Part shown: positions 22,291-48,601 of the stretch, piece by piece
Layout: every line of letters starts with the position of its first letter
How positions within the stretch are numbered: the stretch's first letter is position 1
DNA from: an uncultured Gammaproteobacteria bacterium
GTDB taxonomy: Bacteria > Patescibacteriota > Microgenomatia > UBA12405
Length of the DNA: 60,298 nucleotides
NCBI GenBank assembly: GCA_964558195.1
Contig: CAZLCB010000001.1
Coordinates: 1 to 60,298 of the forward strand
Direction of reading: 5' to 3'
Position numbers and translations under genes: made by a program
The notes under the pieces: generated by a model
What the model was told of the DNA's origin: nothing
The model's database searches: none
The model's input: the letters and a program-made list of their open reading frames with translations, nothing else

Positions 22291-22935
22291 TTATTTAGAA
22301 TTTTTATAACAACTCAATATTTCTGGGTATATCAATGGTATTTTTTCTAAAATCTTTAGATCTGATTTCATTTCGTCATTTTTTTTCTTTATTTGATTGG
22401 TCATATCTTCACCTACTCCCAAATTAGTCCACATATCAATGAGATCTTGGGAAATTAATTCATTTTTTTTATAAAGATCAATAAGAATTTGATTGTATTT
22501 TTTTATTAATTCATTTTTTTCATTATTAGGTGTTTCTGTATACTCTAGATGTTTTAAATAATTTTTTATGGGAAATTGAGATACATCGTGCAAATCTTGA
22601 AATATTTTTAAATTTGTTCTTAAAACCCAATGTTCTGGTGATAATTTATTTTTTTCGTCTTTAAAGATATCTAATAAATCAGGAAAAATATATTTGAAAA
22701 CTTTAAATTGGATTTTGTCACAGATTAAATGGACAAACCACCCTTTTTTAAAATCATCATCCTTATAAAAATTATCGTTTAAGAAATTATTACTGTGGGT
22801 TGTCTCTCGATCAATTTTCGTGATATAGCGGCTATCAGGATAAACCGTTCCTGATATATATTCATCAAGATTTTTAATATCAAAATCGTTTTTAACATCC
22901 AGAGCAAACCTGATATGAGTTCCAAGAAGTGCCAT
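22291..22935 (-). CDS. Hypothetical protein (possible metal-dependent hydrolase)
   Basis: 214-aa ORF. Scattered His/Asp motifs (GTHIRFA, YPDSRY, WFVHLICD) are only weakly suggestive. Confidence 0.5.
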   Translation of the reverse strand: MALLGTHIRFALDVKNDFDIKNLDEYISGTVYPDSRYITKIDRETTHSNNFLNDNFYKDDDFKKGWFVHLICDKIQFKVFKYIFPDLLDIFKDEKNKLSPEHWVLRTNLKIFQDLHDVSQFPIKNYLKHLEYTETPNNEKNELIKKYNQILIDLYKKNELISQDLIDMWTNLGVGEDMTNQIKKKNDEMKSDLKILEKIPLIYPEILSCYKNSK

Positions 22936-22975
22936 AATGTTGATTATAACCTAATAATTTTTGGTAGAATAGGTT

Positions 22976-23308
22976 GTGACGCGAATTAAGTTTAAGAGTG
23001 ATAAGTATAAAAAAGTTAGGGGTGGATATTCCAGATTATTAGACATTTCTTGTGCCAGATGCGGACAACATCTGTGTCTTTATCAAAAAGATGGACCGGG
23101 ATTATTGAAGAGAATGTATTTAGATAGAATTTATGAATCGGATAAATATTCTGGGTTAGAAAATAAACCACTGAAATTAATTCCTAATTTAGTTTGTACT
23201 GGCTGTAATCAAATTGTTGGTATTCCTTATATTTATGAACCGGAGAAAAGATTAGCTTTTAGATTGTTTGTGGGTGAAGTATCGAAGAAAATTGTTAAGT
23301 CAAAATAA
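22976..23308 (+). CDS. Hypothetical CxxC...CxxC zinc-ribbon-like protein
   Basis: 110-aa ORF with a GTG start. It contains CARCGQ and CTGCNQ pairs. Confidence 0.5.
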   Translation: MTRIKFKSDKYKKVRGGYSRLLDISCARCGQHLCLYQKDGPGLLKRMYLDRIYESDKYSGLENKPLKLIPNLVCTGCNQIVGIPYIYEPEKRLAFRLFVGEVSKKIVKSK

Positions 23309-23332
23309 TTCAGTAGCGGAGTTTTGATATTT

Positions 23333-23393
23333 AAAAAAAACGAGGCCCAGGATTGTGTTTCGCACGATGCGAATATAAACACAGCCCTAGGCC
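23333..23393 (-). terminator. Long hairpin plus U8 tract, terminator-like on the minus strand
   Basis: 23344-23360 pairs with 23377-23393 over 17 positions. On the minus strand this gives 14 Watson-Crick pairs, 2 G.U and 1 mismatch. An inner ttcgca/tgcgaa stem is present. The A8 run at 23333-23340 reads as U8 three nt after the stem on the minus strand. Confidence 0.55.
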
Positions 23394-24075
23394 AATGGAT
23401 AAGTCGGGAAAGGAAGGGAGAAGGGGTTGCGTTGGTGACGCGTGGAGTGGCTTGCGGGCGATGAGACGCGCGCGAAGCATTTCCTTGGCCCAATGGTTGG
23501 GTCAGAATGATACGAAAGATATTCAGTTTTCGAGTCACACAAGACCAACGGAGACGATCGGCCCGGCGGATTGATCCATGATGGATTACTACCGTGTTGT
23601 TGTGGCGAAGTCGAACGAGTGTGTGTTCCAAGAGAACTTTTCTCGTGTAGACGACGCCGGGCCGAAGAGATGGATTACCATAGTCCCCTTGAGGCTTAAG
23701 TGCATTTCACCTCAGGCGGCTGCCGTCTGCGCCACTGCGCTGTTCGAGGCCTGGGATTTGGGCGGACCGGTGTTGGTGTGTGACATGCTCGAAGCCCCCT
23801 TAGCGTTCAGCCGTGAACTGGGCGTAGGCCTTTGCCTTCGCCGAAGAAACCCCGGGTTACTACTGCATGGGATTGTCCCTTTTGCCTTTGTTGGCCTAAT
23901 GCAGTGAGTTGAGATTCACAACAGCAACTGTGGCGGCATGATGTTGTCTGGAGCGGTCTGACTAGTTCAATGGACTGCCTCCTCTCCTAGGTCGATTCGC
24001 CCCTGTAGTAACGGTTGGCGCGGTCGGACGCGAGGATGCGAGACAAAAATGATTCACCTCTCTTTCCTTTCTAAT
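23344..24075 (+). ncRNA. Candidate large structured ncRNA of unknown class (GC-rich island); strand unresolved
   Basis: Hand count over 23341-24060 gives G 226, C 170, A 152, T 172 (55% GC). No credible ORF is present. There are many helices, including a perfect 10-bp G/C helix (23559-23568 with 23655-23664). G+U excess and G.U-dependent helices favour the plus strand. The hairpin plus U8 at 23333-23393 favours the minus strand. Confidence 0.5.
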
Positions 24076-24185
24076 TGTTCAGGTACAGTGAAAACAATAT
24101 TTATAAAAACGCTATGTTTTTATATAATTTTTTCAATAATAGATGGAGTTTATATCGAACAAGAAATTAATTCAATGGGGAAAAA

Positions 24186-25010
24186 TTAGTTTGAGAATTT
24201 AATATGGGATAAATAGATTTTTTCGAAACCGGAAATAAAACGTTTTTTGGCATCAGGGACGAATTTTTGATAGATAGAAAATAAGCCTAACCATTGGTTT
24301 AAATTTAATTGAGTTGGTTTGAGAGAATTTACTTTTAATTGGTGATTAATTTTTTTGAACTGATCATAGGAAAATATTTTTTTGTAAATTTCAAAAATAT
24401 TGGGCTTCCATTGATTAAAACCAAAAATAATAAAATCACGAAATTGTTGATAATGCGGCAGATCAATTAATGGTTTATTTAGTAAAGTAAATTTGGCAAA
24501 AACTATATTTACTTGAGGCTTGGGGGTAAAAGCAGTCCGATCAATATCACCTAAAATTTCAACAGCAAAAAATGGAGCAGCCAGTATAGCATCTTGATTA
24601 TTAATATCATCGAATAAAGAAAATTTTTCGGCGGCTTCTTGTTGTAAGATTAAATACATTTCGTCTGGCTTATTGGGTGATTTTAGAATTTTATTGATTA
24701 TAGGAGCAGTAATTGAGAAAGGAATATTGGAAAATATTTTATAGGGTGTTTTTGGTAGTGACCATAAAAGAAAATCAGTGTTAATTAATTTAAAATTTTT
24801 ATTTTGAGAAAATCGATCTTGGAGTTCATTAATTAATTGACGATCTTTTTCGATAGCAATGACCTGGCAACCAAAATTTAATAATTTTTGAGTAATAATT
24901 CCCTTACCTGGACCAATTTCGACAACAACATCTCCAGAATTTATTTGACTGGATTGAAGAAGTTGAGAAACAAGTTGGGGTGATTTAATGAAATTTTGGG
25001 AAAAATTCAT
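24186..25010 (-). CDS. Erm-type rRNA adenine N6-methyltransferase (Erm/KsgA family)
   Basis: SQNFIKS start, SAM motif VVEIGPGKGIIT, AIEKD, YKIFSNIPFSIT, and a C-terminal ...YKKIFS..QF...L.LF.IY pattern that tracks ErmC as I recall it. Confidence 0.8.
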   Translation of the reverse strand: MNFSQNFIKSPQLVSQLLQSSQINSGDVVVEIGPGKGIITQKLLNFGCQVIAIEKDRQLINELQDRFSQNKNFKLINTDFLLWSLPKTPYKIFSNIPFSITAPIINKILKSPNKPDEMYLILQQEAAEKFSLFDDINNQDAILAAPFFAVEILGDIDRTAFTPKPQVNIVFAKFTLLNKPLIDLPHYQQFRDFIIFGFNQWKPNIFEIYKKIFSYDQFKKINHQLKVNSLKPTQLNLNQWLGLFSIYQKFVPDAKKRFISGFEKIYLSHIKFSN

Positions 25011-48295: not shown

Positions 48296-48601
48296 AGCCT
48301 TCAGAGAAATTGAAGTGTCTGACCTGACGAAAGCTAACGCAATCTGACGGTAGGAAAGTCCGGACCACAAAAGGTACAGAACCTAAAAATGTAGGGATTT
48401 GGGTAACCAAATGGCAATGCTACAGAGACGAGTAAGCAAGCCGCCTTCGCAAGAAGCTACGGTGAGCCGAAGTGAAACGAGCAACCTTCTGGTGGAAATC
48501 TCAAGTTGAGACATCAATATCTAACCTTTGAGAGTCTCAGGTAGGGAGAATAGATAGATGACACATAAACAGAATCCGGCTTAACAATTTCTTTGAAGGC
48601 T
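48296..48601 (+). ncRNA. rnpB: RNase P RNA, bacterial type A, compact (~306 nt)
   Basis: P1 pairs agccttcagagaaattg with caatttctttgaaggct. The P4 strands GAAAGUCCGGAC and ACAGAAUCCGGCUUA are present. Confidence 0.9.

Follow-up and report, generated by a model that had tools for sequence, protein, structure and literature searches.

In Staphylococcus aureus, a C-rich 3' motif of the icaR mRNA, resembling an anti-Shine-Dalgarno (anti-SD) sequence, pairs with the SD region at the 5' side of the same transcript (PMC3868564). The pairing of the two sides masks the SD and creates a double-stranded end (PMC3868564). Two further systems concern SD-like elements and ribosomes at the 5' side of a transcript: the major cry3A transcript of Bacillus thuringiensis starts close to its STAB-SD (PMC4113751), and the hbs mRNA of B. 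subtilis is ribosome-protected (PMC5737220).

The window studied here (the whole stretch of DNA that was analysed, 60,298 nucleotides) contains a region, hereafter the island, for which the initial annotation proposed a plus-strand RNA. Its 3' tail (24051-24073, GATTCACCTCTCTTTCCTTTCTA) was thought to resemble the anti-SD end of 16S rRNA and to pair with an SD-like purine run near the other end (23406-23426, GGGAAAGGAAGGGAGAAGGGG). Re-reading the sequence confirmed both strings as well as the 10 consecutive pairs (8 Watson-Crick and 2 G.U) between 23409-23418 and 24070-24061. Also GTAGTAACGGTT at 24005-24016 and the CGCG-GTCGGA-CGCG hairpin, to which a place in the 16S 3' minor domain had been assigned, are found in the plus strand. 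The interpretation we prefer is a different one, to which we give a probability of roughly 0.6: the two tracts form the 5' and 3' termini of a structured non-coding RNA of ~671 nt, which is made from the minus strand (24074 to 23404), has its own promoter and terminator, and is trimmed to a closing helix. The features are as follows.

23333-23340, minus strand: U8 tract of the putative intrinsic terminator, read from the sequence (U9 in G031, UUUUCCAUUU in G036).
23344-23393, minus strand: terminator hairpin (predicted, -28.2 kcal/mol), outside the mature RNA.
23404-24074, probably minus strand: mature abundant non-coding RNA of ~671 nt (RNA-library contigs, no Rfam match, fold).
23406-23426, minus strand: 3'-terminal pyrimidine-rich, anti-SD-like tract CCCCUUCUCCCUUCCUUUCCC, previously read as the SD-like purine run; it holds the predicted 3' arm of the closing helix (23408-23423).
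23559-23568, no strand assigned: one arm of an internal 10-bp G/C helix, CGGCCCGGCG, paired in the folds with 23655-23664.
23987-24046, minus strand: mini-ORF with a TTG start 7 nt past GGUGA, 19 codons and a stop; translation LSRILASDRANRYYRGEST.
24051-24073, minus strand: 5'-terminal SD-like purine tract UAGAAAGGAAAGAGAGGUGAAUC, which is the former anti-SD tail read on the strand that is probably transcribed.
24057-24071, minus strand: predicted 5' arm of the closing helix, consisting of GAAAGGAA, one unpaired A and GAGAGG (minimum-energy and centroid folds).
24075-24140, minus strand: putative AU-rich 5' leader, absent from the mature RNA (no contig coverage), with the block CUGUACCUGAACAAU at 24074-24088.
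24147-24152, minus strand: -10-like hexamer TAAACT, 17 nt past the -35-like hexamer (alignment).
24170-24175, minus strand: -35-like hexamer TTGAAT of the candidate promoter, conserved, starting 11 nt past the erm stop codon.
24186-25010, minus strand: gene for an Erm-like rRNA adenine methyltransferase (Pfam RrnaAD, E = 8e-46), co-oriented with the RNA gene and located upstream of it.

Contigs from three independent metatranscriptomes show that the RNA exists, that it is abundant and where it ends: they span 23404-24074, 23407-24067 and 23404-24071 at depths of 18, 318 and 24, these ends and depths being those of assembled contigs and not strand-resolved. The one raw-read run examined, X22, contains no reads from this stretch. 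In the 1 kb of flanking sequence the depth is zero except for one 151-nt contig at 3.5 (the depth of the RNA is up to ~90-fold higher than that of this contig), so that DNA carry-over can be excluded. Six RNA runs from four studies contain 0.78-0.81 of the sampled words, which matches 671/831, and DNA runs contain up to 1.00. The metatranscriptomes originate from anaerobic digesters, sludge and wastewater. Since the contigs stop at the two tracts (23404/23407 on one side, 24067/24071/24074 on the other), the coordinates singled out by the initial annotation are in fact the termini of an abundant RNA of ~671 nt.

Signals for transcription are found on the minus strand. The hexamer TTGAAT is identical in G000, G036, G031, L096 and G004 (alignment A3); across five genomes TTGA is invariant in the -35 element, as are a T, an A and the final T in the -10 element. 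The pattern TTGnnn-17-TAnnnT follows the erm stop codon in 7 of the 13 island-bearing loci and in none of the island-less loci at that spot. At the far end of the island, the changes in the stem of the terminator hairpin among G000, G036 and G031 are compensatory, and strong hairpins with U-runs (-23 to -27 kcal/mol) are also present in G031, G018, G021, G028 and G027. The promoter and the hairpin were assessed by script and alignment; a simple scanner had missed both because TTGAAT-17-TAAACT matches only 8/12 of the consensus and because the loop limit of the scanner is 8 nt. The island thus has the elements of an independent transcription unit, namely -35 and -10 hexamers at 17-nt spacing and a G+C-rich hairpin directly followed by a U-run. 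Transcription would start near 24140. The leader between this position and the mature RNA (24075-24140) is covered by no RNA-library contig in any of the runs examined, and its 15-mer CUGUACCUGAACAAU is invariant in G000, G036 and G031 (a similar string occurs in G002). On the plus strand nothing comparable to the minus-strand terminator is present.

Based on these transcription signals, it is very probable that the minus strand (the sense of the Erm-like gene) is the transcribed one. An adapter junction points in the same direction: in run X16 the sequence, read on the plus strand, passes at 24067 into a Read-1-type adapter, and there is none at the other end. In a dUTP library such a junction is expected where reverse transcriptase runs off the 5' end of the RNA. 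This makes 24067 a sharp end of the kind expected for a 5' terminus. Structure-based cues for this island variant instead lean towards the plus strand. Here G exceeds C (209 against 159), as in the 16S and RNase P RNAs of the lineage; the plus-strand fold is 34 kcal/mol more stable than the minus-strand fold; and in the alignment fold the first 170 nt reach -29.3 on plus against -16.2 on minus. Several conserved hairpins, such as GGCCCAAUGGUUGGGUC, have G.U on plus and A.C on minus, and the G.U:A.C ratio at positions beside Watson-Crick helices is 15:3 on plus. However, these cues are reversed in other island types (8:2 in G018 and 6:3 in G033, in favour of the erm sense), and the composition-corrected z-scores slightly favour minus (-3.2 against -2.3 for plus). 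As these z-scores are similar on both strands, folding energy does not decide the strand.

The RNA is predicted to be highly structured. The minus-strand fold of the ~671-nt RNA has an energy of -224.3 kcal/mol (z = -3.47), and both arms of the internal G/C helix (23559-23568/23655-23664) are conserved in G031 and L096. Both strands, in their minimum-energy as well as their centroid folds, form an end-to-end helix; on minus it pairs 24071-24064 with 23408-23415 and 24062-24057 with 23418-23423 (8 + 6 predicted pairs). The duplex of the 5' and 3' tracts is predicted at -18.4 kcal/mol on the minus strand and -23.6 kcal/mol on the plus strand, which surpasses all 26 other 60-nt island windows used for comparison (median -9.1, best -13.7 kcal/mol). 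Within the SD-like tract, AGAGGTGAA is conserved in G036 and G031. Pairing of the ends is also seen where the sequences are different. A separate scan placed the window that pairs best with the 5' tract immediately ahead of the terminator in G000, G031, G036, G027, G033 and G002, which differ in tract sequence, and 3' tracts complementary to the 5' tract occur also in L096, G027, G033, G002 and G021. In G002, for instance, GAAGAGGUAAGU pairs with ACUUACCUCUUC, and in G027 AGGAAAGGA with UCCUUUCCU. These observations support the view that the two tracts are the closing stem of the abundant RNA. A simple closing helix was already among the options of the initial annotation, and it is this option that the mapped ends and the recurrent pairing in diverged relatives bear out.

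Our preferred model can be outlined as follows. The RNA would be transcribed from its own sigma-70-type promoter (-35 at 24175-24170, -10 at 24152-24147), starting near 24140, and transcription would stop at the hairpin and U8 terminator (23393-23333); both steps are suggested by conserved signals. Because the mature RNA lacks the terminator hairpin, a cleavage step is required, in which a leader of ~66 nt and a terminator-containing trailer of ~70 nt would be removed. Judging from the folds and the recurrence of end pairing, trimming may come to a halt at the duplex between the SD-like, purine-rich tract GAAAGGAAAGAGAGG of the 5' end and its pyrimidine-rich counterpart CCUUCUCCCUUCCUUUC at the 3' end. 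The resulting helix would join the ends, hide the SD-like sequence and probably block exonucleases such as RNase J.

What, then, remains of the likeness to 16S rRNA? The last 48 nt of the organism's own 16S were recovered (contig C7:1-48); the assembly of this genome lacks complete 16S and 23S genes. Only TCACCTC-CTTT of the plus-strand tract aligns with this 3' end (score 17, against 11.8 +/- 2.0 for shuffled sequences, 24 of 1000 of which reach 17), that is, the plus strand shares UCACCUC-CUUU with the 16S tail and nothing else aligns significantly, including the remainder of the claimed tail. The shared 11/12 bases are explained by the SD-like GAGGUGA on the minus strand. The elements resembling helices 44 and 45 fall outside the best local alignment and are not conserved: G031 differs at both places and G036 keeps the hairpin only, without the GUAGUAAC element. 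Moreover, the SSU and LSU covariance models find nothing in the window when gathering thresholds are applied, and nothing in 23200-24250 even with E values up to 10. An rRNA origin of the island tail is therefore not supported. Given that the RNA most likely derives from the minus strand, the 16S-like tail is most likely the DNA complement of its RBS-like, SD-like 5' tract. That one RNA carries both an SD-like and an anti-SD-like tract is nonetheless unusual, as the initial annotation remarked, and even more so because this genome seldom uses SD sequences.

Several identities for the island were rejected. A protein-coding gene is disfavoured by tblastx, which gives about equal scores in all six frames, and a mobile or phage origin by the lack of any similarity to the island in phage and plasmid collections. 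A known RNA family is likewise not supported: Rfam gives no match in the window at gathering thresholds, none for 23200-24250 at E up to 10 and none for eleven related loci at E up to 0.1. For a CsrA sponge of the CsrB/RsmZ type the partner CsrA (PF02599) was not found in the genome, although absence from a genome that is 92.6% complete is no proof. Full-text literature searches gave no description of such an RNA in CPR/Patescibacteria.

The host is a bacterium of the CPR (Shapirobacteria-like) with a genome of 653 kb that is poor in SD sites. An archaeal reading, raised by an RNase P RNA that scores best with an archaeal Rfam model, is ruled out by the L7/L12 and sigma-70 genes and by the Shapirobacteria relatives. 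Genes for RNase J (TIGR00649, 443.8 bits against a cut-off of 400) and RNase III are present. The Erm-like protein scores 209.6 bits with NCBIfam Erm23S_rRNA_broad (cut-off 212) and 150 with ksgA (cut-off 171), and has homologs in 33 of the 38 genus genomes. Islands are found at ~13 of 30 genus loci and in L096; each of them immediately follows the Erm-like gene and has the same orientation. They diverge fast, with modular turnover between species of this one CPR genus. DNA searches of 61 relatives and 104 family genomes recovered island homologs in G031 and G036 only; the related ones among 42 matches in a 17-mer scan of genome contigs were confined to the contigs of the same two relatives, and among metagenome contigs a scan with 19-mers picked up two copies, both identical to G036. 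Among the contigs of the closest Erm-like proteins, one holds a new variant (L096), one stops at the gene and one is without island. An attenuator with an erm leader peptide is ruled out, given that the island lies downstream of the gene and has its own promoter and terminator.

A number of alternatives have to be weighed against the closing-helix model. If the stable RNA were plus-sense after all (23404 to 24074), its 3' end UCACCUCUCUUUCC would mimic the anti-SD tail of 16S. As a decoy or sponge it might then draw off RNAs that carry an SD, or factors with an affinity for the 16S 3' end, the purine tract at the 5' end keeping the mimic masked. The G-rich composition, the larger number of G.U pairs and the more stable fold and closing helix on plus all agree with this, as do the 11/12 bases shared with the 16S tail and the conservation of TTCACCTCT in G036 and G031. 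We nevertheless consider it unlikely: no plus-strand terminator is seen after 24074, and inspection by eye of the sequence before 23404 gave no conserved promoter on that strand, whereas the conserved promoter and the strong terminators bracketing the island are all in the erm sense, and the adapter junction fits a 5' end. In addition, L096 lacks the CACCUC core, the tail has CCUCU in place of the core CCUCC, the helix 44/45-like elements change in G031, and targets for a decoy would be scarce, few genes of this genome being SD-led. A somewhat better, though still rather unlikely, candidate is that the 5' tract chiefly serves to dock the 30S subunit, as a stabiliser of the STAB-SD type that would stop RNase J at the mature 5' end and so yield a long-lived, abundant RNA. 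The tract would then pair with the 16S tail, possibly together with a ribosome initiating on the next start codon, and the 3' tract would compete. The duplex with the host's own 16S tail GAUCACCUCCUUU is predicted at -15.1 kcal/mol; of 554 ORF upstream regions only 2 reach -12 kcal/mol, so that at most these 2 could match it. The AU-rich leader stops, and the mature RNA begins, 3 nt before the tract; RNase J is encoded; and in most island types a start codon follows 4-9 nt downstream. On the other hand, folding predicts that the closing helix masks the tract in the mature RNA, which would keep the 30S subunit out and argues against constitutive binding, and the complementarity to 16S is weak in other island types (-5.9 kcal/mol in G027, -6.5 in G033, -7.2 in G002 and -7.9 in L096). 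The closing helix by itself would also halt an exonuclease.

Could the tract simply be a ribosome-binding site? The RNA would then be an mRNA or dual-function RNA for a very short peptide (19 codons) with a long structured 3' UTR, and a strong SD is indeed followed by TTG at 7 nt in G000, G036 and G031, AUG or UUG stands at 4-9 nt in ~7 of 9 island types (by eye), and the islands of G029 and G004 carry SD-led, G+C-rich ORFs of ~55-60 codons. Yet conservation at the peptide level is lacking (the conserved nucleotides of the mini-ORF fall in one frame in G000 and in another in G036), the ORF lengths (2-19 codons) are those expected by chance, tblastx favours no frame, and the SD would be masked by the closing helix. 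Judged by its sequence, the mini-ORF is probably not a conserved coding gene, and a coding role for the RNA seems very unlikely; the suggestion that the tract only provides a minus-strand RBS is borne out as far as the RBS-like tract and start codon go, but with a short, unconserved ORF behind them the word 'only' is not supported. Least probable of all is a functional tie to the Erm-like methyltransferase, with the RNA as its substrate, substrate mimic or regulator. Such a tie is suggested by the position of every island directly behind the gene, and the conserved GGAAAG in the 5' tract would resemble the GGAAAGA context of A2058, the Erm target in 23S rRNA. This likeness is short and purine-rich, however, synteny among close relatives is weak evidence, and the RNA has its own promoter. 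The Erm-like gene is also kept in genomes without island, which indicates that the enzyme does not depend on the RNA.

CPR bacteria account for much of the diversity of their domain; they have not been cultured, and their RNA biology has hardly any experimental basis. Here one of them makes a ~670-nt non-coding RNA, far above the level of a neighbouring mRNA, that matches nothing catalogued and whose sharp ends would be set by the SD-like/anti-SD-like closing helix. It is one of a modular, rapidly evolving group of RNAs that occupy a single chromosomal site next to an Erm-like gene. With its known ends, likely strand, promoter and terminator the RNA is directly testable, and a tempting but probably wrong reading as an rRNA mimic has been corrected. 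The host almost never uses SD sequences but keeps a canonical 16S tail, and its abundant RNA bears, at its extreme 5' end, one of the strongest complements to this tail in the genome, which the anti-SD-like 3' end would hold in check. This near-perfect SD complement in an SD-poor genome offers a lead into how CPR use the conserved 16S tail. It is conceivable, but quite unlikely, that the RNA is directed at the ribosome, an opened closing helix allowing the 5' tract to dock on the free 16S 3' end of the 30S subunit. If so, it could sequester or mark ribosomes (hibernation or quality control), perhaps along with the adjacent rRNA methyltransferase.

Compared with known systems, the RNA is similar to ROOL, GOLLD and OLE in size (about 600-1000 nt), dense structure, high expression and non-coding nature. 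It differs from them in matching no Rfam model at E up to 10, in having no phage or plasmid relatives, and in its narrow distribution with rapid modular turnover between the species of one CPR genus. With the STAB-SD systems of cry3A and hbs it shares a 5' SD-like tract (24071-24054) located at the RNA contig ends (24067-24074), complementarity to the 16S 3' end of the host (-15.1 kcal/mol) and the presence of RNase J. Unlike in these mRNAs (for a toxin and a histone-like protein), the predicted partner of the SD-like tract is the 3' end of the same molecule, and the candidate stabilised RNA is non-coding. What it has in common with icaR is a C/U-rich motif on the 3' side that is complementary to the SD region on the 5' side, in a host that also encodes RNase III. 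Whereas icaR is an mRNA with a regulated ORF, the ~671-nt RNA holds only an unconserved ORF of 19 codons and shows no frame preference; and here it is the extreme ends of a processed, abundant RNA that pair, in a host that hardly uses SD sequences.

A G+C-rich island (50-60% G+C at about 23340-24075) stands out from the A+T-rich window, and no ORF of at least 140 residues overlaps it. It is flanked by two features:

22976-23308, plus strand: zinc-ribbon-like ORF of 110 residues, on one flank of the island
24186-25010, minus strand: rRNA adenine methyltransferase gene (Erm-like), on the other flank

Against the Erm23S_rRNA_broad model (cut-off 212) the methyltransferase yields 209.6 bits, against ksgA (cut-off 171) 150 bits; judged by these scores, it is nearer to Erm than KsgA. 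The window's own genome has another RrnaAD homolog, a weaker one on a different contig (G000; C21:2445-2999, plus strand, 85.7 bits, within a 334-residue open frame), which may be the true KsgA/RsmA, the island's neighbour then being an Erm-like paralog. Any functional tie of the island's RNA to the enzyme has synteny as its sole basis.

The stretch is present in 20 public runs, six of which are metatranscriptomes (four studies; digesters, sludge and wastewater). Sampled words of an 831-nt query are found at a fraction of 0.78-0.81 in the RNA runs, which equals the island's share of the query, and up to 1.00 in DNA runs. Over 22900-24600, the three RNA runs compared each give a single island contig: 23404-24074 (depth 18), 23407-24067 (depth 318) and 23404-24071 (depth 24). 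The 1 kb flanks have zero depth, except for a 151-nt contig (depth 3.5) in the zinc-ribbon ORF. DNA carry-over is therefore excluded as the origin of the signal, as it would have covered the flanks. From the contig limits it follows that the mature RNA measures about 671 nt and that its ends coincide with two tracts, at 23406-23426 and 24051-24073.

The RNA is non-coding and falls into no known class. The island has no match in Rfam, even at E up to 10, nor do any of eleven related loci, and phage and plasmid collections show no similarity to it. Species-level homologs number three (G000 and its genus relatives G036 and G031), with 71-93% identity in blocks and whole modules gained or lost; in tblastx among them all six frames score about equally. 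A fourth, shorter variant (locus L096) shares an internal 10-bp G/C helix with them, as well as the 3' tract and the terminator, and is without the middle domain. Within the RNA, a second GAGGUGA (23707-23713, minus strand) lies in a conserved hairpin (23690-23725) that joins UGAGG to CCUCA by base pairing; of four GAGGTGA copies in the 60-kb window, two fall within the island. A conserved internal GGAGAGGAGGCA (23980-24000, minus strand) is followed 7 nt on by a start-stop-like two-codon "ORF" (TTG-AAC-TAG in the window, TTG-CAC-TAA in G036, TTG-CAC-TAG in G031).

Across the genus, the Erm-like gene is present in 33 of 38 genomes. About 13 of 30 loci have, after this gene, a block of 300-1000 nt that is more G+C-rich than its flanks, and a convergent gene comes next; the block sequences are unrelated or barely related. 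Loci lacking an island have that convergent gene, or a co-oriented protein gene, directly after the Erm-like gene. The locus is a hotspot for small insertions. In G029 (L071) the island, some 165-365 nt past the Erm-like gene, holds a segment of about 100 nt that is perfectly duplicated in tandem, and a G+C-rich ORF of about 56 codons led by an SD (MYNQNFNTGQQ...). An SD-led ORF of similar size (MSYLYNNPV...) is found in the G004 island, so some islands may encode small proteins. In G004 (L089) an inserted co-oriented ORF, about 95 codons long, separates the Erm-like gene from the conserved promoter block; this ORF also occurs in G024 (L066), there without an island.

Very probably (about 85%) the transcribed strand is the minus, erm-sense strand. 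On this strand the erm-distal end of the island carries a hairpin of -28.2 kcal/mol followed by U8, and hairpins of equal strength with U-runs (-23 to -27 kcal/mol, U5 to U9) occupy the corresponding place as terminators in G031, G018, G021, G028 and G027; the stem shows compensatory changes among G000, G036 and G031. No comparable terminator was found for the other strand at the erm-proximal island end. Directly 3' of the erm stop codon stands TTGAAT-17 nt-TAAACT. A five-genome alignment, including two genomes with different island bodies, shows no variation in the -35 TTGA or in the T, A and last T of the -10, and TTGnnn-17-TAnnnT occurs at this spot in seven island-bearing loci and in zero island-less ones. 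In X16, one of the metatranscriptome runs, plus-strand sequence enters a Read-1-type Illumina adapter at 24067, and the opposite contig end is without adapter. A sharp adapter-joined end is expected from reverse-transcriptase run-off at an RNA 5' end, and Read 1 is antisense in usual dUTP libraries; the junction favours the minus strand, though it is suggestive only. Evidence against this choice comes from the plus strand's G > C (as in the lineage's 16S and RNase P RNAs), its more stable fold (-258 vs -224 kcal/mol), its more frequent G.U beside Watson-Crick helices (15:3) and its better score when the first 170 nt are folded as an alignment. These composition and fold cues reverse in other island types, and composition-corrected z-scores are slightly in favour of minus. 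The primary transcript would start near 24140 and end near 23335, the mature RNA lacking a 66-nt AU-rich leader and the terminator hairpin.

The initial annotation had read the plus strand as ending in a 16S-like anti-SD tail, possibly an rRNA-derived decoy. The last 48 nt of the 16S of G000 lie at the start of contig C7 (C7:1-48; ...GGAUGGAUCACCUCCUUUGAGG) and agree with the 16S 3' end of the genus relative G019; the remainder of this gene and the 23S gene are unassembled in the MAG. Only UCACCUC-CUUU of the tail aligns to it, a score equalled by 24 of 1000 shuffles; the supposed minor-domain elements, GUAGUAAC and a hairpin, fall outside the alignment and are not conserved in G031, and the L096 variant is without the CACCUC core. 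An rRNA origin is not supported, and the plus-strand rRNA-mimic or decoy interpretation is probably wrong in both strand and origin. Read on the minus strand, the tract is complementary to the genome's own 16S tail (predicted -15.1 kcal/mol). This is remarkable in an SD-poor genome: only 56 of 554 ORFs (10%; ORFs of at least 120 codons, GGAG, GAGG or AGGA at -20 to -3) are preceded by a 4-base SD core, and just two of the 554 upstream regions reach -12 kcal/mol with the 16S tail. The tail itself retains CCUCC. Since TATAAT stands immediately or within a few bases 5' of ATG in many genes, leaderless or very short-leader mRNAs seem widespread.

This genome (653 kb, 40 contigs, 92.6% complete, 34.8% G+C) is bacterial. 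Close homologs of the methyltransferase are annotated as Candidatus Shapirobacteria (CPR/Microgenomates). The two closest relatives, G031 and G036 (contigs L029 and L031), are publicly labelled "uncultured Gammaproteobacteria bacterium", probably a mislabel; gene content and relatives point to CPR/Shapirobacteria. An Rfam scan of the window gave two tRNAs and one RNase P RNA (48305-48592, plus strand), the latter scoring best with the archaeal rather than the bacterial model (100.2 bits; gathering score 84). An archaeal host is rejected, as ribosomal protein L7/L12 and sigma-70 are encoded.

On the best-supported reading, a terminal helix would form between the SD-like 5' tract and the pyrimidine 3' tract, setting the mature ends, protecting them and masking the SD-like sequence. 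The tract strings and coordinates first described are exact, as are the ten consecutive pairs between 23409-23418 and 24070-24061 (8 Watson-Crick plus 2 G.U). The minus-strand RNA begins with UUAGAAAGGAAAGAGAGGUGAAUCA and ends with CCCCUUCUCCCUUCCUUUCCCGA, and both minimum-energy and centroid folds pair 24071-24064 with 23408-23415 and 24062-24057 with 23418-23423. This terminal duplex is predicted at -18.4 kcal/mol, against a best of -13.7 and a median of -9.1 for 26 internal windows. In other island types the best partner of the purine-rich 5' tract likewise lies just upstream of the terminator, with differing sequences (GAAGAGGUAAGU with ACUUACCUCUUC in G002, AGGAAAGGA with UCCUUUCCU in G027; likewise L096, G033 and G021). 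Such recurrence supports the closing helix, which the initial annotation had listed as one option, and amounts to family-level covariation.

A live alternative is a STAB-SD-like role for the 5' tract. [quoted passage not shown] In the island's RNA, the tract stands 3 nt downstream of the mature 5' end and, read by eye, a start codon follows 4-9 nt after it in most island types, including the window; yet folding predicts a paired tract, and several island types have a tract with weak complementarity to 16S. The mini-ORFs behind it have 2-19 codons and are not conserved. Genes for RNase J and RNase III were found in G000. This 92.6% complete genome yielded no csrA gene, which makes a CsrA-sponge role unlikely.

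That one abundant RNA should carry SD-like and anti-SD-like ends side by side, in a CPR bacterium poor in SD sites, remains unusual and testable. The proposed terminal helix would work similarly to cry3A STAB-SD and to icaR mRNA, where a 3'-UTR UCCCCUG motif pairs with the mRNA's own SD (PMC3868564); B. subtilis hbs mRNA is a case related to cry3A (PMC5737220).
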